NCBI GenBank assembly: GCA_022709525.1
Contig: JAKLIQ010000001.1
Span: 210,679 to 274,678 of the forward strand
Source of the DNA: Candidatus Omnitrophota bacterium
GTDB taxonomy: Bacteria; Omnitrophota; Omnitrophia; Omnitrophales; Aquincolibacteriaceae
Direction of reading: 5' to 3'
DNA: 64,000 nt
The notes under the pieces are model-generated. The model ran no database searches. It worked only from the letters and a program-made list of their open reading frames with translations, and had not been told where the DNA came from. The translations under genes and the position numbers were made by a program. How positions within the stretch are numbered: position 1 is the first letter of the stretch; the number at the start of each line of letters is the position of its first letter. This document shows, in pieces, positions 11,576 through 23,187 of this stretch.

Positions 11576-11713
11576 CAGAGAATATCAAAAGAGATAAAAA
11601 AAGCTAGCATGCGTCTTATGACAGTGGTAGAATCCGAGCCCTTGAGATTCAAGGAAAATTTTGCATTGCGTTTGGTATGGTTTCTATTAAACAAAACCAG
11701 CAGGAGGTTGAAG

Positions 11714-13234
11714 ATGTTCCATTCGAAAAAACTTATCCCTCTTCTCGCTTTAGTGCTTGTGGTTGGAACGGCCTTTGTGCTGTCCGGCTGCGCAAGTTGC
11801 TGCGGCGAAGCAAAATCCAAACCCGCTTCTACGGGCGGCGCGCTTCGCGGCGTGCTAGGGTGTGATGACTGCGAAAAATCCTCCAGTCCTCTTCACATCG
11901 AAAAAGAAATGCCGCGTCAGATCGTCGTGGGAAAACCCTACACTTATACGATCAAGGTCTCCAATGAATCCTCCTGTGTGTTGGAAGACGTGGTCGTGAA
12001 CGAAAGGGTCCCTGAGAAATACGAAATGCAGACCGCGACTCCCAAGCTGAGCAATGTGGCCGGGCGCGTCGCAACCTGGGATCTCGGCTATTTGAAAGCC
12101 GGAGAGACCAAAGTGATCACCATTACCGGTATTGCTTCAGATGCTAGCGCGACGACGGCTTGCACGACGGGCGATTATACCCCTGTCCTGTGCCTTAGCC
12201 CCGAGGCGATCTCCCCGAGCTTGAAAGTCGCTATCGAAGCTCCGGATCAGGCGCTCATCTGCGATACGATCCCGGTCAAGATCACCGTGACCAATAGCGG
12301 CACCGGTTACGCGCAGGGCGTTGTGATCACCCAAGCCCTTCCGAAAGGCCTTACCACGACGGACGGAAAGACCTCCGTCACGATCAATGTCGGGGACCTC
12401 GCGGGCGGCGCCTCCAAGGCGTTCAGCGTGAACCTCAAAGCCACGGAGACCGGTAGCTTCGCCAACAAGGCGAGCGCCGAGGCCTCTAACGGCTTGTCCG
12501 CTGCGTCCGGTTCCGTGACCACCGAAGTGAGCCAACCCGTGCTTAAGGTCAATATCGCGGGCCCGAGCAAGATCTTCGTTACGAAGAACGCGAACTATGA
12601 AGTGACGGCGCAGAACGTGGGCGATGCCGCTTCGGCCAATACCGTTGTGAGCGCGACCATTCCTTCGGGCATGAAATTTGTGAGCGCCACCAACGGCGGC
12701 GCCGCGGATGGCGGCAAAGTCGTATGGAATATCGGCACGCTTGAAGCCGGTAAGTCCGTGAAGCTCGGTATGACCTTGAACAGTGTGACCGGCGGCACCG
12801 GCGAAAGCGTTGCCAGGGCGACCGGTACTTGCTGCCAGGAAGCTGGCGCAAGAGTCCAATCCGATGTCCAGGGTATCCCGGCCATCCTTTTGGAGGTCAT
12901 TGATACCGAAGACCCGATCCAGGTTGGCGGAACGGAAAAGCTTTACATCACCGTGACCAACCAGGGATCCGCTCCGGATAACGACATTGTCGTGAAAGTG
13001 AAATTCGAAGAGAATCTCGACTATGTCGCCGCGTCCGGTCCGACGCCCGGAAGATCCGATGACGTCAAGAGCGTCGAATTCGCGCCGCTTGCGTCCCTCG
13101 GCGCGGGACAAAAAGCAACATGGGAAGTGACCGCGAAAGCGGCCAGTGAAGGCGACCATCGCACGACCGTTGTTATGACCAGCGATGCGATCAGCCGCCC
13201 CGTGCAGGAAACGGAAGCGACCCGGATCTACTAA
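11714..13234 (+). CDS. Cysteine-rich lipoprotein with DUF11/Chlam_OMP6-type repeats (OmcB-like), long paralog
   Basis: Lipobox 'LSGCASCCGEA'. Repeated Ig-like DUF11 units. C-terminus '...ETEATRIY' shared with the paralog at 22333. RBS CAGGAGG before ATG 11714. Confidence 0.7.
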   Translation: MFHSKKLIPLLALVLVVGTAFVLSGCASCCGEAKSKPASTGGALRGVLGCDDCEKSSSPLHIEKEMPRQIVVGKPYTYTIKVSNESSCVLEDVVVNERVPEKYEMQTATPKLSNVAGRVATWDLGYLKAGETKVITITGIASDASATTACTTGDYTPVLCLSPEAISPSLKVAIEAPDQALICDTIPVKITVTNSGTGYAQGVVITQALPKGLTTTDGKTSVTINVGDLAGGASKAFSVNLKATETGSFANKASAEASNGLSAASGSVTTEVSQPVLKVNIAGPSKIFVTKNANYEVTAQNVGDAASANTVVSATIPSGMKFVSATNGGAADGGKVVWNIGTLEAGKSVKLGMTLNSVTGGTGESVARATGTCCQEAGARVQSDVQGIPAILLEVIDTEDPIQVGGTEKLYITVTNQGSAPDNDIVVKVKFEENLDYVAASGPTPGRSDDVKSVEFAPLASLGAGQKATWEVTAKAASEGDHRTTVVMTSDAISRPVQETEATRIY

Positions 13235-13517: not shown

Positions 13518-13541
13518 GCTTTTAAAACTCGCAAAACAAAA

Positions 13542-13580
13542 AAGGCCTGATCTTTTCAGATCAGGCCTTTTTTGTTTCCA
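13542..13580. terminator. Bidirectional terminator hairpin (aggcctgatc-ttttca-gatcaggcct) flanked by A- and T-runs
   Basis: Perfect 10-bp stem with a T-run 3' and an A-run 5'. Sits between convergent genes and abuts attR. Confidence 0.7.
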
Positions 13581-13588
13581 GATAAATC

Positions 13589-13605
13589 TGGGGAGTAGTG
13601 GATTC
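13589..13605. repeat. 17-bp direct repeat TGGGGAGTAGTGGATTC (attR candidate), identical to the 3' end of tRNA-Tyr at 21301-21317
   Basis: Exact 17/17 match; flanking bases differ on both sides. Confidence 0.6.
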
Positions 13606-13724
13606 CTAAAACCCCCTATACAAAAAACGCGCGCTCTTTTTCATATAGGAAAAATTTTCTTCGGTTTGTTTTCTTTCGTCTTTTTATGATCCTTTTTAGT
13701 CCCCAATCGGTCCCAGAAAGACAT

Positions 13725-14357
13725 TTAACTGAACTGCAAGCGCCTATCAAGACCAAGGTGTTGGAAACGAATCCCGGCTGCCCAGTCACTCACCTGAAAC
13801 ACTTCTGATAGTTTTTGTATCGTAATTAAGTGCACTGTTGTGAGAGGCGAAGAATCATGCGCTTCGTCCTGGAAAATCTCATTTGCCTTTTCTTCGAAAA
13901 GATGTGCCGGCATTAAAATAGCAGCGGCAAGATATTTTGCATTTTTATCCATGAGTCGATAAATCGCTGGATCCAAAGAGTCGTAAAGGTTCAGATAATC
14001 TTCTGGAGTTTTAACATTTTTGAAAAGGTCCTTATGTATGATTGCATGCGCTCCTTCCTCCGCCAGGGTAAAACGGTAGCGCCGCTCATTTGAATCAAGA
14101 TCCATAAACATAGGATCCATCCTGATCGCACGCCGGCTCAGGGTAATGTAAGCCTCCATACCGTAAAGGCGTTTCAAGGACTGGAATTCTATGATGGAGA
14201 TATCGAGATCCCTTTCCAGAATCAATTCGATATCGACAGGGATAGAATCGGGAGGTTTGTGAAACTGTTTTAAAAACTCTTCAGCTATCGCTTCTAACTC
14301 CCCAGTATTGTAAATGCGCGGATCTAAACTGGGTTTGTTAGGTTCCTTTGATGTCAC
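13725..14357 (-). CDS. ImmA/IrrE-family (DUF955) metallopeptidase-like protein with variant motif EEGAH in place of HEXXH
   Basis: 'FTLAEEGAHAIIH' aligns to ImmA 'FTLAHELGHLLLH'. Coupled to the upstream XRE gene by a 20-nt overlap. Confidence 0.55.
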   Translation of the reverse strand: MTSKEPNKPSLDPRIYNTGELEAIAEEFLKQFHKPPDSIPVDIELILERDLDISIIEFQSLKRLYGMEAYITLSRRAIRMDPMFMDLDSNERRYRFTLAEEGAHAIIHKDLFKNVKTPEDYLNLYDSLDPAIYRLMDKNAKYLAAAILMPAHLFEEKANEIFQDEAHDSSPLTTVHLITIQKLSEVFQVSDWAAGIRFQHLGLDRRLQFS

Positions 14358-14715
14358 GAATCAGCTGCCGGATTTGTTCTTTTGTGAGTTTTTCGTTTTT
14401 GATGGTTCTCGCCATTAACGGAAGTTCTTCCATTGCTTCGATCTCTTCAAAATACTCCTGAACATCGGCGGATATTTCGCCTTCCTTTGTGGCAAGGTCA
14501 AACAATTTCCCGTAATCTTGGTCCTTGTCTGACAGCCCCAATGCTGAAGCGATTCTTTTCAGAATTTCTGGCGCTCTAGGGGGGTTGGCTTTTCCGCACT
14601 CAATGTTACTCAGGTTCGACGGAAGAATCTCCACCACTTTGGCAAACGACCTCAAACCCAATCCTTTAGCGAGCCGTAGTTTTCGCACGAAACTGCCAAA
14701 TGTAGTTTTGCTCAT
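14338..14715 (-). CDS. XRE-family helix-turn-helix transcriptional regulator
   Basis: 'FGSFVRKLRLAKGLGLRSFAKVVEILPSNLSNIECGK'. Confidence 0.75.
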   Translation of the reverse strand: MSKTTFGSFVRKLRLAKGLGLRSFAKVVEILPSNLSNIECGKANPPRAPEILKRIASALGLSDKDQDYGKLFDLATKEGEISADVQEYFEEIEAMEELPLMARTIKNEKLTKEQIRQLIRDIKGT

Positions 14716-14823
14716 CTAGGTGCCCTCCTGTTATGAAGTATACATAACAGAACTACGGAAAACAAGGGCAAAACTTTAGTTTTTAATAGGGGTATTCTCG
14801 ATAGGAAATGCCGTAGAGCCAGG

Positions 14824-15339
14824 CTAATCTTGGATAGATTCGGCAAGCGGGACATGAAATGACAGGCTCACGAGCCCATATTGCGAAAAAGTCTCATCGG
14901 AAGATATCTTCTTGCCGTCAAAATAGGCCTCGGCCCGCAAGTGCGAACAGTCCGGGTTCTGGAGCTGACAGGTCATTGACATTATGTAGGGATTAGCGGC
15001 CAGCTGAAGTTTTGTTTTTTGGCGTTCTTCTTTGCTCTGGCTATTGGCCTCTCGAATTGTTTGATCGAACGAGGTAACAGTCACAAATGGCGTATGGTTT
15101 TCTCCGGAGAACCCCGTAGATCCTTGCCCTAAACCAATCCCCGAAAAATTGCAATTAATCTTATTAACTCCGCCCCAGCCCTGGTCGCTTTCAATGAGCA
15201 ACATCAACGAGTTTTTTGAATTCTGAAAATACGCCTGTTTTTCTGCGTCATGTGTTGCTCTGACATTCTGGTAATAGGCGCATCCGGACAGAGCCAGCAC
15301 GAGAAGCAATGCTGACAATCTCTTGATCGTGTTTTTCAT
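14824..15339 (-). CDS. Lipoprotein of unknown function (island cargo)
   Basis: 'MKNTIKRLSALLLVLALSGC' lipobox. GGAGAGGGGG RBS. The ORF-track start at 15438 is an upstream extension. Confidence 0.5.
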   Translation of the reverse strand: MKNTIKRLSALLLVLALSGCAYYQNVRATHDAEKQAYFQNSKNSLMLLIESDQGWGGVNKINCNFSGIGLGQGSTGFSGENHTPFVTVTSFDQTIREANSQSKEERQKTKLQLAANPYIMSMTCQLQNPDCSHLRAEAYFDGKKISSDETFSQYGLVSLSFHVPLAESIQD

Positions 15340-15485
15340 AATCCGCCCCCTCTCCAGCGATTTTATAGATTTCATCAGAATTTTTTGCTCGCATTTGGTC
15401 CAGGACGCGCGATCCGGACCTGCCAAGACATAAGGCATGACCCTCTTTCCGAGAAAGTCTGCTCCGCTTCGCGCGCCAAGTCAAG

Positions 15486-15525
15486 ATTGAGTGTAGCACT
15501 ACAGTCAATTGAGTTTAGCACTACA
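15486..15525. promoter_or_regulatory. Two 18-bp direct repeats ATTGAGTKTAGCACTACA, followed by palindrome GTAGCGCTAC, in a divergent intergenic region of the island
   Basis: 17/18 identity, 22-bp spacing. Related inverted copies at 19784-19827. Confidence 0.35.
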
Positions 15526-15671
15526 AAACATGTTGCGTAGCGCTACGCTATGCATCCCTTGGACGTCAATGCGAAGAATAAATTTACGGTGCCTCCGCAC
15601 AATGCGAAAATTTCCCCGCGACAAAGATTGATCCACAAGAAACTGAACATTGAAAAAAAGGAGAAAGATGT

Positions 15672-15938
15672 ATGAACAAGCAACCAACTGCTACTCACTC
15701 TATCCCCTCCGGATCCGAAACCACGGAAACAAACTCCATCTATGAGGCCGCTTACCTTTTGTGCCGGAATTTAAAACTTTGCAGAATGGACCGCAGCGGC
15801 GGCTCTAAAGTAACCTTTGTCTTTCAAGGAAAAGACGCCACTAAAAAGGCTAATGAATTCTTTAACGGCGCGAAGGTTGGAGCGCGTGCGTATTCAGATG
15901 CGGTCCGCAGCCTAAAAGACCGAATTTTTAAACGCTGA
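15672..15938 (+). CDS. Hypothetical small protein (island cargo)
   Basis: ORF with RBS 'aaaggagaaag'; no confident family call. Confidence 0.4.
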   Translation: MNKQPTATHSIPSGSETTETNSIYEAAYLLCRNLKLCRMDRSGGSKVTFVFQGKDATKKANEFFNGAKVGARAYSDAVRSLKDRIFKR

Positions 15939-15964
15939 TCCACTAACCAGGAAGATGGTGGGTT

Positions 15965-16891
15965 ATGCGCGAAGAGAAAAATGATTCAGGAGAGAAGCAG
16001 CATTTTTACATGCTCGAAGCCAGGCACGCGGAACTGGTCGAGTTGGGAAAAATCTCCCTTGAGGATCTTGGCGCCCTTTCCCTCATGGGGTGCAATATCA
16101 ATCCTCACAATGGATACATGATAACCGGGCATAGCGATTATGCCGGAAGGGCAAATATTAAACCGTCCCAAGCGCGCTATCTTTTCGAAAAACTTGAGAG
16201 CGCCGGGCTTATCCGTTTTTTACTTCTCCAGCGCGGGCGATACAGTAAGGGATTGCTGTTTGTAATGGGCCGGAAGTTGGCTGGAGGCATGACGGTTAAC
16301 GATGAATTTGTTTCAAAAACAGCCAAAAAACGAGGCGTTTTTTCCGAATTGGAAAGCGACTTTCCGAATAAGAAAATTACCGAAATCCCCTCTACGGACA
16401 CTCTAGAAGTAAATGACGGATTCCGAATTGACCGAGAGGGAGAGGGAAAGGAGACGGAGACAGAAAGGGAGAGGGATAACGAGCCAATCCTTATTAAAGC
16501 GCCAAGGCTCACCATGGAAATAGCAAAGCATCCCCTTTTTAAACGCATCACGGAAGCGAATTGGGATCTCATTTACAAGAAATACGAATATGCTTGGCTA
16601 GATAACAAACTTCAGGACCTTGCTGGACGGCTTAATAAGGGACCTATATCTTTCGATCGATTGAATGGAATGCTCCAAGATGACTGGACCCAGCGAAGGC
16701 CAGCAAAAGATTATCGTCGCGAGGATGAGAAACAAAAAGCCGATATGCGCCAATGGGCCGCAGATCAAAAGGCAGACGAAGGGAAACCAGATCCGGAGTG
16801 TTTGATTGAGTGGCGAAAGAAGCGTGATCGCATGAAAGGATCGGGGACAACCGAAGCAATGACTGAAGCCGGCGCTGGTGAAAGCACATGA
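15965..16891 (+). CDS. Hypothetical protein with winged-helix-like N-terminal region and acidic ER-rich tract (replication-organizer-like?)
   Basis: 'ARYLFEKLESAGLIRFLLLQRGRYSKG'. Low-complexity 'EGEGKETETERERDNE'. Confidence 0.4.
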   Translation: MREEKNDSGEKQHFYMLEARHAELVELGKISLEDLGALSLMGCNINPHNGYMITGHSDYAGRANIKPSQARYLFEKLESAGLIRFLLLQRGRYSKGLLFVMGRKLAGGMTVNDEFVSKTAKKRGVFSELESDFPNKKITEIPSTDTLEVNDGFRIDREGEGKETETERERDNEPILIKAPRLTMEIAKHPLFKRITEANWDLIYKKYEYAWLDNKLQDLAGRLNKGPISFDRLNGMLQDDWTQRRPAKDYRREDEKQKADMRQWAADQKADEGKPDPECLIEWRKKRDRMKGSGTTEAMTEAGAGEST

Positions 16892-17148
16892 GTAAAGAAT
16901 ACGAGCTTGATAAGCGGATCTTTGACTTTGGGATGGATTGTCTCGAAGGTGCATTCTGTGGCAAATTCAACCGGACCGCTTACTGGCGCGAAGTAAAAGA
17001 AATGGGATCGTTTGAATTTATGCGCGGGATTGAGTTTGTCGTCAAGACGGTAACTTTTGGTGATGGCCTCATACCATACAAAATTCGAAAAGGTGGCAGA
17101 CTTAAGACGTGTGCTTTTTGCAAAGGACTAACAGAGGGAAAAGGATGA
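16888..17148 (+). CDS. Hypothetical small protein
   Basis: Translationally coupled ORF chain; several Cys. Confidence 0.3.
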   Translation: MSKEYELDKRIFDFGMDCLEGAFCGKFNRTAYWREVKEMGSFEFMRGIEFVVKTVTFGDGLIPYKIRKGGRLKTCAFCKGLTEGKG

Positions 17149-17366
17149 AACGGCTAAAGCGCTGGCTTGTCTCGGTGTTTAAGGATCCGCCAAGAGGCCG
17201 GAAGGATCCGAAGCCGTGCGGCATGGGCCCGGAGTGCTCATTTTGGGACTGGTGCAAAGAAACAGATTTTAAGAGGCTTCCAGGTTCAAGAGACCGCAAA
17301 TGCTATGTGGAGACATTCCTTTCCTCGATGAAGGAGACTACCGGTAAACAACGCGCGAAGCGGTAA
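17145..17366 (+). CDS. Hypothetical small basic Cys-containing protein
   Basis: Overlaps the previous stop (ATGA). 'MKRLKRWLVSVFKD...CGMGPECSFWDWC'. Confidence 0.3.
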   Translation: MKRLKRWLVSVFKDPPRGRKDPKPCGMGPECSFWDWCKETDFKRLPGSRDRKCYVETFLSSMKETTGKQRAKR

Positions 17367-17426
17367 CCATAAAATTATACGATTTATATGTAATAAAAAA
17401 GGACAGGGAAAAGGATAAATGAAGCC

Positions 17427-17660
17427 ATGGGCGGCGAGGACCGGAGGGAATACTTCGCGCATTTCAGGCAGTTCGACAAAGACGGACAAGAGTCAGATCT
17501 TTTTAACATGGTCGCGTTCTTTACTTACTTCGATCACAACTGGGAAAGTTCGGGAGCGAATTTTCGAAACCGTCCGCTGACTGTTAAACCCGCGCATGAG
17601 GTCAAATGGAAGCTCGGTAAAGGCGAGGAAAATAACAACTGGACGAGGACCTATTGTTGA
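17427..17660 (+). CDS. Hypothetical small protein
   Basis: ORF with RBS 'ggaaaaggataa'. Confidence 0.3.
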   Translation: MGGEDRREYFAHFRQFDKDGQESDLFNMVAFFTYFDHNWESSGANFRNRPLTVKPAHEVKWKLGKGEENNNWTRTYC

Positions 17661-17759
17661 GCGGAAAAATATCAAGGAATAAGTTGATTTTTAAAACGCT
17701 CCAATGGAGAATCTTACCCAAGAAAAGCATTTTGTAGGGACAGAAGAAAGAAGTTTGTT

Positions 17760-19253
17760 ATGGCAGTAGATACGCAAGCAAGTATCATTTTGAGGCTCAA
17801 GGATGAGTTCTCAAAAAATCTGAAATCCGCAGGAAATAATTTTCAATCCTTCGCGCGCCAAATTGACCAAGCCGGCGCATCTATTACCCGGACCGGGATG
17901 AAGATGGTGGCCGTAGGCACCACTATGAACGCCCCCTTTTTCGCCGCCGTAAAGACGATGGAGAAGTATTCTTTTGCCGCTCAAAACGAGATGAGACGCC
18001 TAAACAATGAGTTTGTTGCTCTATCAAAAACAATCTCCGAAGCGGCTTTACCCACGATCCGGCAATTCAATGACAACTTCTCTAAACTCATAAACGGGCT
18101 TAAAACCTTGGATCCGGCTCTGCTTCAAAATATCGCGCACTGGTCAATGGTGGCTGGGCAAATTTTGATCGTTGCCGGGACGCTCGAGATATTTATCGGA
18201 AAAGTGATAAGCCTAATCGCGAAATTGGGCCATTGGGGGAGGACGCTAGTTATCTTTAGCGGTGGGGTAATTCCCGGACTTATCGCAGTGATCGGAGGAC
18301 TAATCTTTGCCTGGATAAAATTTCACGACCAATTTGTCCTGGTTGTGGATTCCTTGCGGTTTTTATGGCTTCAATTTTGTGATTCCCTTATGGCCGCATG
18401 GCAAAAGGTCCTGCAGATCATTTCAAAGGTTCCGGGCGCAAATAGTTTTGCGGCGCAGGTGGACCAGCTGACGATTGCTAGACAAAAACTTAAACAGGAA
18501 ATGAACGCACTCGCAAGTGGCGGAAACTCGGAATGGAGTCAGCAACTTCAAAATTTTTCCAATCAAATCCAAAAGGCCGTTGCCGGATTCCAAAAGAGTT
18601 TTAACAGCGCCTCCCAAAACGTCGAGACTGTCATGCGGGATATGAAATCTAGAATTCAAGATACCGCCTTTTCGCTTTCAGATGGGTTTGCCGATGCGTT
18701 CGATAGGGTCTTGTTCGAAGGTGAGCGATTTGGCAATTCGATGAAATCCCTCTTTGCAAATATGGGCCGCAGTATTTTAAAAGACTTCGTTTCCACGGTT
18801 GGAAAGAACCTCTTTGGAGCTATTTTAGGGACCTCCGGCACAAACTCCGGATCCGGAATAGGTGGCCTTGCTGCCGCCGGCCTTGGGTCGTTCTTTGGCC
18901 CAATAGGGACCGGAATAGGCGCTCTTTTTGGAAGCCTCTTTAAATTCCACGAGGGAGGGGCTATTTACGCTCATGCCGGCCTTGCCCCTGATGAGGTGCC
19001 AATAATCGCCCAAACAGGCGAAGGAGTGCTTTCCAGGCGCGGAATGGCAACCATTGGCGGATCCGGGAACCTTCGCGCACTTAATGCGGGGCAATCTCCG
19101 GGAGGCCAAACTGTTGTAATTAATCTTACACAGGTGATTAAGGCATGGGATTCACAAGACGTTTACAGAAATCGCAAAGCGTTTACCGCAGCCATCGAAG
19201 AAGACATTATGAATAATGGCCGGATCCGTAATGCGATCAAATCCTACGGCTGA
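17760..19253 (+). CDS. Phage tail tape-measure-like protein (coiled coil, TM hairpins, Gly-rich segment)
   Basis: 'GSGIGGLAAAGLGSFFGPIGTGIGALFGS'; C-terminal '...HEGGAIYAHAGL..DEVPIIAQTGEGVLSR'. Confidence 0.4.
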   Translation: MAVDTQASIILRLKDEFSKNLKSAGNNFQSFARQIDQAGASITRTGMKMVAVGTTMNAPFFAAVKTMEKYSFAAQNEMRRLNNEFVALSKTISEAALPTIRQFNDNFSKLINGLKTLDPALLQNIAHWSMVAGQILIVAGTLEIFIGKVISLIAKLGHWGRTLVIFSGGVIPGLIAVIGGLIFAWIKFHDQFVLVVDSLRFLWLQFCDSLMAAWQKVLQIISKVPGANSFAAQVDQLTIARQKLKQEMNALASGGNSEWSQQLQNFSNQIQKAVAGFQKSFNSASQNVETVMRDMKSRIQDTAFSLSDGFADAFDRVLFEGERFGNSMKSLFANMGRSILKDFVSTVGKNLFGAILGTSGTNSGSGIGGLAAAGLGSFFGPIGTGIGALFGSLFKFHEGGAIYAHAGLAPDEVPIIAQTGEGVLSRRGMATIGGSGNLRALNAGQSPGGQTVVINLTQVIKAWDSQDVYRNRKAFTAAIEEDIMNNGRIRNAIKSYG

Positions 19254-19258
19254 CACGA

Positions 19259-19747
19259 ATGACAGACCAGAACCCACCCCAAGCAACGGACCAAGCAATA
19301 CCTCCTCCGTTGCCGAAACGCAGGCTTAAAACACAAACCCGGAAGATGCTGGCTGTTCTTCGCGGGATTGCAAAGGGAAATACGATCTCGCTCGCTTGTG
19401 AGAGCGCTGGGATTACCGCGATGACATTCTGGAACTGGCGGAAGAAGTGGCCGCGCATTTCTGCATTAACCGAAAGCCTTATTGCGAGCAAAATTCAAGC
19501 GGTAGAGGATAAACTTTTTAATCAGTGCGTTAATGGCAATATGACAGCCATCATCTTTTTTCTCACGAATCGATGCCCGGAGCGCTGGTCCGATCGACGC
19601 GCTTTGGTAAACAATACGAACGTCTTTAACGCGCGAAACGCGCCAGCTAAAGATGAGTCCAAGGAAAGCGTCGAAGCGATTTTTTCCAGAATTGAATCGA
19701 TACGCGCATCATTGATCCCACCGGACGGCACAAAACAACTTCCCTAG
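19259..19747 (+). CDS. Phage terminase small-subunit-like HTH protein (COG5484-like)
   Basis: 'LRGIAKGNTISLACESAGITAMTFWNWRKK' and 'MTAIIFFLTNRCPERWSDRRAL' resemble terS proteins of alphaproteobacterial prophages and GTAs. Confidence 0.45.
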   Translation: MTDQNPPQATDQAIPPPLPKRRLKTQTRKMLAVLRGIAKGNTISLACESAGITAMTFWNWRKKWPRISALTESLIASKIQAVEDKLFNQCVNGNMTAIIFFLTNRCPERWSDRRALVNNTNVFNARNAPAKDESKESVEAIFSRIESIRASLIPPDGTKQLP

Positions 19748-19885
19748 GTTCCGGGATTTTTAGAGGGCGGGCAAGTAAAGCGCTTTAGTTTAGTGGTAAA
19801 GTAAAATGGTTTAGTTTAGTGCTACAGTTCAATTCGGCGACAGGAAGGGCTGGATTCTCGGAAGTATCCAGAACGGCAGAACGAC

Positions 19886-20056
19886 TTAAACGGTCGCTAC
19901 AAAAGCCTCGATGCTCGCAAGCGTCTTGCGGTCCTTTTTGGGAAACCCGCCAAACTTCATAGCCTCAAGCCCAATCTTAAGAGCCGAGCGGATGAGTTGA
20001 TATTTAGTTTTGCTGATACAAACGCATTCTTCGTTTGCCTGTTTCTTCGCCTTCAT
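19886..20056 (-). CDS. Small ORF (56 aa), possible excisionase/AlpA-like; overlaps the integrase 3' end
   Basis: Perfect AAGGAGG RBS 7 nt upstream. 'MKAKKQANEECVCISKTKYQLIRSALKIGLEAMKFGGFPKK...'. Below the ORF-track cutoff. Confidence 0.25.
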   Translation of the reverse strand: MKAKKQANEECVCISKTKYQLIRSALKIGLEAMKFGGFPKKDRKTLASIEAFVATV

Positions 20057-21179
20057 GTTTGTCCTCCTTGTTTTTGGTCGTCCCTCGTTCCCCTGGTAAT
20101 ACGTTCAATTTCTCTACTGCTTCGCGCAAGTGTCCCGGCGTTTGATGTGCATAGATAAGCGTGGTTTGGATATTGCTGTGTCCCATAAGGGTTTTGACTG
20201 TGAAGGCGTCTGCGCCCCGCATAAGGAGCTGGCTGGCAAAAGTATGCCGTAGGGAGTGAACTTGCGTTAGATCGTAAATGCCGGCGTTCTGCGCTATCCG
20301 TATGAGGTCTAGCCGGAGTTGGTTGCCACTTATGGCATTGCCGTTCTTATCCGGGAAAACGAAATGGCTTTGACGCGGAAGGCCATCGAGCACAGCGGCC
20401 ACTGCTTCGGACATTGGTATTTCACGCTCGCCGGTCTTGGGAACCCAAAAGTCTTTGCGCTGGATCTTGATAACACGGTGTTTAAAGTCGAGATCTTTCC
20501 ATTCGAGATTCAGAAGTTCTCCCTTTCTCATCCCGGTATGGACCATGACAAAAAAGACCGGATAAAATTCGGGCTCACACGCGCGAAGTAGACGGCCTAT
20601 TTCCGCATCCGTCAAAAACCTTCTTTGCTTTGCATCATCGGCTTTCAGAAAACTAACGTCCCGGACCGGGTTTTCATCCAAAAACTTTTGCTTAATGGCA
20701 AGGTTGAAAATCGTGCGGAGCGTGCCGATCTCGAAATTAACCGTATTTGACTTCGCGCCCTTCTTAATGGTCGTTTTCTTCGTCAGAGGGCCCTTCTTGC
20801 CGTTCTTTGAAACTGGGGCACTCTTACGGTGCTGTTTGAACTTTTCGATCAGGGCGGGCGTTATATCGCGCAAACAAGCCACTTGGGGGACCGTCTTTAG
20901 AAACTCAAGGAAGTTGCTTACGGCGGAACGATAGCGGACGGTCGTAGCCGGCCTGTGATTCGTTTGGGAGTATTTCAGATAATCTTCGAGGAAGGTCTTG
21001 GGATCTGCTTGTTCTTGGTCGAGGAAACCTAGCTGGTTTCGCTCGTCTTTTACTTCGTGATCTTTCAGGGCGAGCTCGGCGATTTTCTTATCCCGGCTTA
21101 CTCGCTTGCGGTATCTTCGACCATTCTTCAGGTAAAGATCGATGTAATACCACTCGCCGCGCCTTCGGATAGTGCCCAT
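20004..21179 (-). CDS. int: Tyrosine site-specific integrase (phage integrase family)
   Basis: 'HSLRHTFASQLLMRGADAFTVKTLMGHSNIQTTLIYAH' (R..HxxR..Y). Adjacent to the tRNA-Tyr 3' end. Confidence 0.9.
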   Translation of the reverse strand: MGTIRRRGEWYYIDLYLKNGRRYRKRVSRDKKIAELALKDHEVKDERNQLGFLDQEQADPKTFLEDYLKYSQTNHRPATTVRYRSAVSNFLEFLKTVPQVACLRDITPALIEKFKQHRKSAPVSKNGKKGPLTKKTTIKKGAKSNTVNFEIGTLRTIFNLAIKQKFLDENPVRDVSFLKADDAKQRRFLTDAEIGRLLRACEPEFYPVFFVMVHTGMRKGELLNLEWKDLDFKHRVIKIQRKDFWVPKTGEREIPMSEAVAAVLDGLPRQSHFVFPDKNGNAISGNQLRLDLIRIAQNAGIYDLTQVHSLRHTFASQLLMRGADAFTVKTLMGHSNIQTTLIYAHQTPGHLREAVEKLNVLPGERGTTKNKEDKHEGEETGKRRMRLYQQN

Positions 21180-21300
21180 GCTTTTTCCCTCATCTGGTCT
21201 GGTTTTGGTCCCTAAACGGTCCCAAGTCCTACATGAGGGATTCTAGCGTGCACTTAATTCATTGTCAAACAAGCATTTACAGCATCACTCTAAAAAAGAG

Positions 21301-21384
21301 TGGGGAGTAGTGGATTCGAACCACTGAAGGCTAAAAGCCAACAGATTTACAGTCTGTCCCCTTTGGCCGCTCGGGCAACTCCCC
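21301..21384 (-). tRNA. tRNA-Tyr (anticodon GTA), long variable arm, CCA not encoded
   Basis: Hand-folded: GGGGAGT acceptor, ACAGA/TCTGT anticodon stem with loop CTGTAAA, AGTGG-TTCGAAT-CCACT T-arm. Confidence 0.85.
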
Positions 21385-21469: not shown

Positions 21470-21541
21470 AGCTGGTGGAGGGATTTGAACCCCCGACCCG
21501 CTGTTTACAAAACAGCTGCTCTACCCCTGAGCTACACCAGC
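21470..21541 (-). tRNA. tRNA-Thr (anticodon TGT)
   Basis: Hand-folded: GCTGGTG acceptor, GCTGT/ACAGC anticodon stem with loop TTTGTAA, GGGGG-TTCAAAT-CCCTC T-arm. Confidence 0.8.
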
Positions 21542-22251: not shown

Positions 22252-22332
22252 TTTAATCGCATCGCTGAATAGCGTGCCCCGCGTTGGCGGGACACGCTAT
22301 TCGTGTCTTTGCCTTTAACAAGGAGGTTAGAA

Positions 22333-23187
22333 ATGAAGAGAACGGTGGCGAACATTTGTGTTTTAGTTTTCATGGTCGCGATCGCTTTTGCCCTTTCCGG
22401 TTGCGCGTCCTGTTGCGGAGAGGCGGCCCCAGCGAAGGCCCCTGCAACCAAGGGAATGCTGCATGGAACGATCGGATGCGATGATTGCGAGCTTTCCTCC
22501 AGCCCATTGAGGGTTGATAAGGAAATGCCGGGCCAGGTCGTGGTCGGGAAGCCCTATACCTACACGATCAAGGTCACCAACGAGGCCTCCTGCGTTCTTG
22601 AGGATGTCGTCGTGATCGAAAGGGTTTCCGAGGGCTACAAGATCGAATCCGCCAATCCTTCGGCGACCAAGGTTTCCGGCCGCGTTGCGGAATGGGATAT
22701 CGGCTATCTGAAGCCCAACGAGACCAAAGTCATCACGATCACGGGAGTGGCATCCAGCCCCAGCGCGACAACTTCCTGCACGAAAGCCGATTATAACCCG
22801 GTGCTTTGCCTCGGTCCGGGGGTGGGGATCCCGGCGATCCTGCTTGAAGTGGTGGATACCGAAGATCCCGTCCAGGTTGGCGGAATGGAGAAGTTCTATG
22901 TGATGGTAACGAACCAAGGAAATGCCGTGGATTCGGATATCGTCGTGAAAGTGGATTTTGAAGAAAATTTTGACTATGTGTCGTCGGGCGGTCCCACCGC
23001 GGGCAAGGCGGAAAGCGCCAAAACCGTTACGTTCGCTCCTCTAGCCGCTTTGGCCCCCGGGCAGAAAGCGACATGGGAAGTGACCGCGAAGGCCGTTTCG
23101 GAAGGGGATCATCGCACCTCCGTGAAGTTGACAAGCGATGCGATCCAGCGTTCCGTCGACGAAACTGAGGCGACCCGGATCTATTAA
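22333..23187 (+). CDS. Cysteine-rich DUF11/OmcB-like lipoprotein, short paralog
   Basis: 'LSGCASCCGEA' lipobox. N- and C-terminal domains homologous to 11714..13234; ends '...ETEATRIY'. RBS AAGGAGG. Confidence 0.7.
   Translation: MKRTVANICVLVFMVAIAFALSGCASCCGEAAPAKAPATKGMLHGTIGCDDCELSSSPLRVDKEMPGQVVVGKPYTYTIKVTNEASCVLEDVVVIERVSEGYKIESANPSATKVSGRVAEWDIGYLKPNETKVITITGVASSPSATTSCTKADYNPVLCLGPGVGIPAILLEVVDTEDPVQVGGMEKFYVMVTNQGNAVDSDIVVKVDFEENFDYVSSGGPTAGKAESAKTVTFAPLAALAPGQKATWEVTAKAVSEGDHRTSVKLTSDAIQRSVDETEATRIY

Follow-up and report, generated by a model that had tools for sequence, protein, structure and literature searches.

A 64,000-nucleotide stretch of the genome of an uncultivated Candidatus Omnitrophota bacterium (contig JAKLIQ010000001.1, positions 210,679 to 274,678; hereafter the window) carries a 7.7-kb element in its tRNA-Tyr gene, which is likely to be an integrated phage satellite and a representative of a small, previously undescribed family. 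Judged from its genes, the element probably redirects the packaging of a helper phage with a small terminase subunit (TerS) of its own and builds chimeric tails with a tape-measure protein (TMP) of its own, and these two are the only virus-particle genes in the island. An earlier note on this DNA had left the choice between a satellite and a decayed prophage. The satellite option is favoured by empty sites in sister species, a conserved gene order in diverged copies, purifying selection, a TerS clade restricted to islands and a co-occurring phage that carries homologues of both TerS and TMP.

The last 17 nucleotides of tRNA-Tyr (TGGGGAGTAGTGGATTC) had been reported to be duplicated exactly at the far side of the element, and both copies were recovered, at 13589-13605 and 21301-21317. 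A search of the window that allowed up to two mismatches returned these two copies only, and not one of 100 shuffles that preserved dinucleotides gave two or more matches. On the minus strand, the 17-mer runs through the T arm (its 3' half) and the 3' acceptor strand to the discriminator base of a tRNA-Tyr that is identical at 84 of 84 bases to that of the sister species L016. Scanning a genome collection with the neighbouring MMPL transporter gene yielded 20 Candidatus Omnitrophota loci, in which MMPL shares 82-88% protein identity (73% and 50% in two weaker cases) and about 80% identity at the nucleotide level. Several of these loci place tRNA-Tyr and tRNA-Thr directly after MMPL or after a small PLDc_N gene, and L018, L023, L013, L015 and L020 possess tRNA-Tyr without the island. 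The empty tRNA-Tyr site for which the earlier note had suggested looking was thus found: L018 and L023 have the order PLDc_N, terminator hairpin, tRNA-Tyr, tRNA-Thr, with one copy of the 17-mer and no island. Since the left flank (up to 13604) and the right flank (from 21289) of the window both align to this single-copy stretch of L023 (2567-2592), the segment 13589-21300 (7,712 bp) is, as judged by alignment, inserted precisely in the 3' end of tRNA-Tyr and regenerates the tRNA. Excision is predicted to leave the attachment junction CATCACTCTAAAAAAGAG-TGGGGAGTAGTGGATTC-CTAAAACCCCCTATAC (attP) on the excised island and TTTCCAGATAAATC-TGGGGAGTAGTGGATTC-GAACCACTGAAGG (attB) at the emptied site.

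ARAGORN and Pfam bear out that a tyrosine integrase gene lies beside tRNA-Tyr and that tRNA-Thr comes next, so that the integrase gene beside a tRNA, the duplicated tRNA 3' end and the unoccupied site in relatives together mark a tRNA-inserted tyrosine-integrase genomic island. A terminator had also been placed at the far end of the element. The hairpin is real (20 bp, perfect, 13534-13577) but falls outside the repeat and occurs at the same place in the empty sites, and by this position it is the terminator of the host PLDc_N gene and not a boundary of the element. The GC content of the island is 0.47, compared with about 0.55 in its immediate flanks and 0.51 in the remainder of the window. 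An assembly chimera or a chance repeat, with the 17-mer and the gene block forming no real unit, can be dismissed: two metagenome contigs do end in or near the tRNA genes, but four independent assemblies of different metagenome samples match the window at 100% identity along 11-21 kb, two of them (L001 and L002) spanning both junctions, and therefore the locus is no assembly artefact. The repeat is moreover unexpected by chance in the shuffles described above, and the boundaries match the empty sites of the sister species.

A shared gene order, running from a DUF5659 protein through a 308-residue winged-helix protein, small open reading frames (ORFs), TMP, TerS and a 56-residue ORF to the integrase (Int), recurs on other metagenome contigs, some of them partial, at 52-94% protein identity to the window. 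A second island, on a 6.8-kb contig of ENA sample ERZ1426829, encodes in order bPH_2 (minus strand), DUF5659, proteins of 286, 73 and 116 aa, a TMP of 507 aa, a TerS of 170 aa, the 56-aa ORF (minus strand) and Int (minus strand); its counterpart of the 308-aa protein is 59% identical to that of the window, its TMP 52% and its TerS 72%. A third copy, L112 from another sample, retains a 77-aa ORF (p77), TMP (87%), TerS (85%), the 56-aa ORF (95%) and Int (94%) followed by tRNA-Tyr and tRNA-Thr, at 82% nucleotide identity, and its tRNA spacer differs, which places it in a different host. Further partial copies are found on L010, L113 and L114, and a DNA search of 50,697 phage records with the whole island gave no match. 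Ratios of nonsynonymous to synonymous divergence (dN/dS, calculated according to Nei-Gojobori for the window against L112 or L111) range from 0.06 to 0.16 for all testable genes (p77, p86, TMP, TerS and Int), and by this measure the island genes are under strongly purifying selection.

The helix-turn-helix gene that had been called terS-like is, by sequence comparison, a genuine full-length TerS. The proposed profile check matched PHROG_309, and TerS shares 57-59% identity with the product of a gene directly upstream of the large terminase subunit (TerL) on two IMG/VR contigs (L006 and L007), where TerL, a portal/Mu-F fusion, a protease and the major capsid protein follow downstream of the TerS homologue. 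In neighbour-joining trees, all eight island-type TerS proteins form one clade apart from phage TerS (200/200 bootstraps), which points to a long independent descent. Island and phage proteins differ mainly in the helix-turn-helix (IAKGNTISLACE versus LRFGSALSVACR) and have the C-terminal motifs RRALVNNTNVFNA and IRxSLIPP in common. The noncoding region between terS and int is about 91% identical to that of L112, as counted from the alignment, compared with 82% for the element overall; taken together with the region between int and the tRNA, noncoding identity amounts to 91-93%, with a proportion of synonymous differences (pS) of 0.36-0.58 in the adjoining genes. Between the island and the phages, only the coding TMP and TerS regions align, with no shared noncoding cos or pac sequence, and IMG/VR scans with the island-type TerS profile returned distant phage TerS genes only and no island.

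The tape-measure-like gene is, by homologue search and by its syntenic position in phages, likewise a genuine full-length TMP. Its homologues, of 489-516 aa, align over their full length, indicating that the 497-aa protein is no fragment, and on phage contigs they lie in a neighbourhood consisting of the tail tube, two ORFs at the positions of chaperones, TMP, DUF2460, Tail_L, NlpC/P60 and gpJ. Island TMPs were monophyletic in 0-1 of 200 bootstraps for the full-length protein, residues 1-160 and residues 161-440, and in 23 of 200 for the short C-terminal segment 441-497. The second-island TMP groups with that of a phage from its own sample, ERZ1426829 (195/200 bootstraps). Residues 161-440 of the window TMP join the phages L033 and L008 in 199 of 200 bootstraps, whereas residues 1-160 never do so (0/200) and fall with another phage type; this mosaicism accounts for the weak full-length placement with L033 and L008 (60/200). 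The contrast between the TerS clade and the scattered, mosaic TMPs suggests that the islands kept a private TerS lineage, and that their TMP was repeatedly recombined with the TMPs of co-occurring phages. We consider the TMP to be probably a functional part of a parasitic strategy and no leftover.

As protein comparisons have shown, TerS and TMP are both homologous to genes of one siphovirus lineage that is present in the same samples. IMGVR_UViG_3300010429_000133 (27.8 kb) carries both homologues (TerS 57%, TMP 66-67% identity), comes from the same metagenome as the host contig L002 and shares only these two genes with the window. A second island-phage pair is provided by sample ERZ1426829, in which the island TMP is 66.7% identical to that of a 23-kb phage contig. 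The largest contigs with TMP or TerS homologues measure 37.6-38.9 kb. None of the other island genes (regulatory, replication and small) has a homologue among more than 80 phage loci belonging to the lineage, no CRISPR-spacer-like short matches link the window and the phage contigs outside TMP and TerS, and no helper prophage lies within the window.

Searches of the island ORFs with Pfam, PHROGs and NCBIfam detected no capsid, portal, TerL, tail tube, lysis, primase, helicase or conjugation gene, in line with the earlier statement that capsid, portal and large terminase are absent. The island thus has the gene content expected of satellites in general, with no autonomous virion genes and with helper-directed functions for which a helper lineage can be identified. 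The absence of capsid, portal, TerL and lysis genes would also fit a cryptic, decayed prophage of the siphovirus lineage, in which int, the immunity module, TMP and TerS happened to survive deletions that removed most genes, and so would the derivation of TMP and TerS from one phage lineage, a GC content below that of the host and the interrupted TMP of one related copy. We nevertheless regard decay as very improbable. The phages have TerS ahead of the entire structural module and TMP a long way downstream; in the island, TMP comes first and TerS follows 5 bases later, an order that is no subset of the phage order and is unreachable by deletion alone. Moreover, the same compact gene order is preserved in independent samples across the full range of protein identity given above, none of the tested genes shows relaxed selection, TMP is full length, TerS belongs to an island-only clade, the remaining genes lack homologues in the phage loci and the att repeats are perfect.

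Several observations weigh against the satellite interpretation. The link between phage and host consists of co-occurrence in samples and of Omnitrophota labels on distant TMP homologues only. Domain searches found no primase, helicase or recognised initiator domain in any island ORF, and the candidate initiator role of the 308-aa protein is based on a generic winged-helix fold and a shared domain architecture. No tail chaperone homologue stands beside the island TMP, unlike in the PICI-like elements (PLEs) discussed below, and L111 and L114 represent a rearranged copy with an interrupted TMP. The divergence of the island between the window and L112 (82% nucleotide identity) is close to host divergence among the sister species (about 80% for MMPL), and given this similarity the island may, formally, have descended vertically with repeated loss. 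The four island-bearing assemblies are identical and the island is integrated in all of them; no island copy was found in IMG/VR, and the exact empty-site junction (41 nt) had 0 matches in JGI metagenome contigs.

These last searches, which gave no sign of encapsidation, would also suit a defence or interference island that is integrative but not packaged: TerS and TMP would be decoys poisoning siphovirus packaging and tail assembly, the lipoprotein would take part in superinfection exclusion and the element would persist by protecting its host. Such an island would account for TerS and TMP being under purifying selection and tracking co-occurring phages, for a pair of XRE repressor and M78 peptidase that resembles the CapH/CapP regulators of defence systems, and for an accessory slot filled by a lipoprotein in the window or by a bPH_2 membrane protein in the second island; the locus is moreover occupied in sister species by other integrase islands, with defence genes such as ThsB-TIR. 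We find it unlikely, since it leaves unexplained the TerS clade with its changed helix-turn-helix, the conserved noncoding element by terS and the candidate replication module. In addition, the occurrence of the element in tRNA-Tyr of at least two host species, with the sites of relatives empty, calls for a route of transfer, and conjugation genes are absent. Defence overlaps with the satellite model rather than replacing it, as known satellites combine interference and transfer.

Returning to the satellite model, we propose the following cycle. The tyrosine integrase would integrate and excise the element at the 17-bp core, possibly assisted by the conserved 56-aa ORF, and 22-bp repeats located about 80-90 bp inside each end may serve as arm-type integrase sites. 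The XRE repressor would silence the rightward operon through the repeats at 15486-15545 until the ImmA/CapP-type M78 peptidase inactivates it upon DNA damage or phage infection, and the 308-aa winged-helix protein would then initiate replication of the excised circle. With its shared C-terminal part and different helix-turn-helix, the island TerS may recognise a site on the island and pass island DNA to the helper TerL. Packaging probably proceeds in concatemers, a speculative step that we propose because the island has no recognisable capsid-resizing gene: five units would amount to 38.6 kb, close to the size of the largest contigs of the phage lineage. The island TMP would take the place of the helper TMP in helper-made tails, thereby forming chimeric tails, and recombination with phage TMP genes could keep it compatible with, or distinct from, the current helper. 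In its fullest form, which we put forward tentatively, the element would be the founding member of an undescribed family of minimal satellites in Omnitrophota with a two-gene helper kit, namely a private TerS of altered DNA specificity and TMP cassettes swapped with the current helper, that moves as concatemers of about five units in full-size capsids with chimeric tails.

The features of the element, its insertion site and the candidate helper lineage are listed in Table 1.

Table 1. Positions and supporting evidence for features of the element and its surroundings (window coordinates unless a contig is named; E, E-value)
Feature	Position	Strand	Evidence or remark
attR core, distal copy of the 17-bp tRNA-Tyr 3' end	13589-13605	.	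exact repeat
22-bp repeat about 90 bp inside attR	13694-13715	+	direct repeat of 21203-21224, 86% identical; candidate integrase arm-type site
ImmA/IrrE-type M78 metallopeptidase (210 aa)	13725-14357	-	PF06114 E=4.7e-8; PHROG metallo-protease; PADLOC CapP E=2.8e-14
XRE-family repressor (125 aa)	14338-14715	-	20-nt overlap with peptidase gene; HTH_31/HTH_19; PHROG_3 repressor; PADLOC CapH
Lipoprotein (171 aa, Met before LSGC lipobox)	14824-15339	-	longest ORF from 15438; variable accessory slot
22-bp tandem repeat and overlapping palindromes	15486-15545	.	divergent intergenic region; candidate operators
DUF5659 protein (88 aa), first gene of rightward operon	15672-15938	+	PF18903 E=1.1e-6
308-aa protein: N-terminal winged helix, disordered linker, helical C-terminal domain	15965-16891	+	candidate replication initiator
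86-aa conserved ORF (p86)	16888-17148	+	84% identical in L111; dN/dS 0.09
73-aa Cys-rich conserved ORF	17145-17366	+	62-84% identical in L010 and L111; 85 aa (p85) from GTG at 17109
77-aa conserved ORF (p77), directly upstream of TMP gene	17427-17660	+	69-87% identical in L010, L111 and L112; dN/dS 0.11-0.16
Full-length tail TMP (497 aa)	17760-19253	+	dN/dS 0.09; homologues of 489-516 aa
TerS, small terminase subunit (162 aa), island-specific clade	19259-19747	+	PHROG_309 E=3.4e-13; dN/dS 0.085
26-bp tandem repeat in terS-int intergenic region	19773-19824	.	candidate pac, ori or recombination site
56-aa ORF (orf56)	19886-20056	-	overlaps int 3' end by 53 nt; candidate excision factor
Tyrosine integrase (391 aa)	20004-21179	-	PF00589 E=2.5e-32, PF13102; PHROG_1 E=1e-72; dN/dS 0.06
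22-bp repeat about 80 bp inside attL	21203-21224	+	in 93%-conserved stretch common to L112; candidate arm-type site
Promoter-like site upstream of int	21240-21268	-	TTGACA, 17-nt spacer, TAGAAT; 11/12 consensus, consensus match only
tRNA-Tyr(gta)	21300-21384	-	ARAGORN; 3' 17 nt (21301-21317) are the attL core
tRNA-Thr(tgt)	21470-21541	-	ARAGORN
Methyltransferase/radical-SAM/glycosyltransferase genes of phage lineage	L006 11972-15536; L008 276-2945; L009 4038-6765		
102-103-aa Cys-rich ORF of phage lineage	L008 5863-6174; L009 9703-10011; L033 9691-10002		

The regulatory and small genes largely agree with the earlier calls. Pfam, PHROGs and PADLOC identify the XRE repressor and the coupled ImmA/IrrE-like protease. 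Parts of the divergent intergenic region are 89-90% conserved in L010 and L111. The lipoprotein gene and the chain of small ORFs are present as called, with the lipobox visible in the translation; the lipoprotein is called as 171 or 204 aa on metagenome contigs, and PADLOC returned no defence match for it or for the small ORFs. The DUF5659 gene is kept in the second island and in L010 (56% identity). A stop codon in L111 assigns the start of the 73-aa ORF to the later Met. Comparing p77, p85 and p86 with phage tail chaperones by hhalign gave probabilities below 1%, by which a chaperone role was rejected. An excisionase-like ORF had been suspected to overlap int: it is real, gene calls on L001, L004, L112, L114 and the second island put a 56-aa ORF at the corresponding position (73-95% identical), and its part in excision stays a candidate role.

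The 308-aa protein has only two other matches among 5.8 billion proteins; a profile search of 1.84 billion yielded 26 representatives, and a fold search retrieved generic winged-helix matches only. It shows no similarity to the Phage_rep_O-type proteins encoded by the islands of L019 and L030, of which it had been considered a possible relative. The DNA encoding its linker contains short direct repeats (16341-16375 and 16430-16476; TTTCCGAATNNGAAA and GACNGANAGGGAGAGGGA, each present twice), which faintly recall an origin inside an initiator gene. In the rearranged variant formed by L111 (1-6058) and L114 (1-1888; JGI 3300027914), ORFs of 293 and 559 aa replace the DUF5659 gene and the N-terminal part of the 308-aa gene, and TMP is broken after approximately residue 354-380 by unrelated sequence with a minus-strand ORF.

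In the candidate helper lineage, methyltransferase, radical-SAM and glycosyltransferase genes lie between the major capsid and head-tail connector genes, an unusual place for them. The second ORF before the phage TMP encodes a separate 102-103-aa Cys-rich protein (CRAC...C...C) where a frameshift extension of the tail chaperone is usual. The gene upstream of phage TerS, considered as a TMP that would give an island-like order, proved to be a ParB-methyltransferase.

Around the insertion site, paralogous DUF11/CLIPPER lipoprotein genes (11609-13234 and 22303-23187) flank the tRNA-Tyr/tRNA-Thr pair, and a scan of JGI metagenome contigs with the flanking CLIPPER protein gave no confirmed relative. 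The stretch from MMPL to GGDEF/EAL is very variable among the sister loci L012-L031: CLIPPER and PLDc_N occur in some of them only, and L014, L016, L022, L025 and L028 have the tRNA pair in inverted orientation. Contigs L003 and L004 end in or just past the tRNA genes (window positions of about 21471 and 21354), perhaps owing to strain heterogeneity or simply to an assembly break at tRNA repeats. Other tyrosine-integrase islands occupy the same locus in L019 (14773-22205) and L030 (13091-18106), with integrases 29-32% identical; each encodes a Phage_rep_O-type initiator, and that of L019 also ThsB-TIR and a helicase/HNH-repeat protein. From these arrangements, the tRNA locus appears to be an insertion hotspot of small integrative elements.

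Good descriptions of phage satellites come from only a few cultivated groups and, to our knowledge, no satellite has been described for Omnitrophota, an uncultivated phylum for which our data provide a concrete candidate helper-satellite pair. Satellite-encoded TMPs were first reported in 2025, for PLEs and EPIPs (bioRxiv 10.1101/2025.01.29.635557; PMC12822802). Two independent island-phage pairs, each from the same sample, suggest that piracy of the tail interior may be a general satellite strategy and no peculiarity of Vibrio; if the minimal-satellite family outlined above is real, encoding a TMP would be a strategy that recurs among satellites of distant phyla. This family of TMP-TerS islands would escape detection models that rely on primase, on AlpA or on structural genes being absent.

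Phage-inducible chromosomal islands (PICIs) are defined by an integrase at one end, divergent regulators, a primase-replication module and a TerS of their own, lack TerL, capsid, portal and lysis genes and measure about 10-15 kb. The element resembles PICIs, including the SaPIs, in its terminal integrase, its divergent regulatory region, its candidate replication module followed by a packaging module and its TerS distinct from that of the helper. The PICI-like label of the earlier note therefore holds as far as a TerS without TerL or capsid is concerned. It fails on the definition, as the island lacks a primase or replicase, includes a structural gene (TMP) and is only 7.7 kb long. It also differs from PICIs in having no recognisable capsid-size or packaging-interference genes, in its XRE and ImmA regulators, which are neither Stl nor AlpA, and in its Omnitrophota host. 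The overlap of an XRE repressor gene with an M78 metallopeptidase gene is a trait of the ImmR/ImmA switches of ICEBs1 and temperate phages and of CapH/CapP, systems in which DNA damage or another signal leads the peptidase to cleave the repressor; unlike ICEBs1 and CBASS, the island shares the regulatory module only and contains no conjugation or CBASS genes.

Among the smallest satellites, the PICMIs of Vibrionaceae (about 6 kb) have a core of int, alpA and primase, are inserted beside fis and carry no terS that was found (PMC10803314). A small gene overlapping their integrase gene (iolg) is essential for excision, and without capsid-remodelling genes they are packaged as concatemers matching the helper genome in total length (PMC10803314). 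The element is similar in its minimal size, in its tyrosine integrase gene with a small overlapping gene (orf56 corresponding to iolg) and in the concatemers suggested here (5 x 7.7 kb, about 38.6 kb), but has neither alpA nor primase, encodes TerS and TMP and resides in tRNA-Tyr. The 11-kb EPIPs of Mycolicibacterium encode both TerS and TMP; according to the study that describes them, no other satellites carry a TMP (PMC12822802). EPIPs additionally encode a serine integrase, a major capsid protein, a scaffold and head-tail adaptors (PMC12822802), whereas the island uses a tyrosine integrase, sits at a tRNA and lacks genes for a capsid, a scaffold or adaptors.

PLEs of Vibrio cholerae, all of which encode a TMP that is selectively built into chimeric tails, parasitise a lytic myovirus, encode a tail chaperone and a baseplate hub as well and have a TMP about 20% identical to that of the helper (bioRxiv 10.1101/2025.01.29.635557). 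The island, in turn, encodes TMP alone, with no chaperone detected by hhalign and no hub-like gene by Pfam or PHROGs, and its TMP is a mosaic with phage TMPs that is far closer to its siphovirus counterpart. Deletion of the PLE TMP reduces transduction by 96-99.9% (bioRxiv 10.1101/2025.01.29.635557). Like the PLEs, the island encodes a TMP homologous to that of a phage, and the PLEs offer an experimental precedent for the chimeric tails proposed here.

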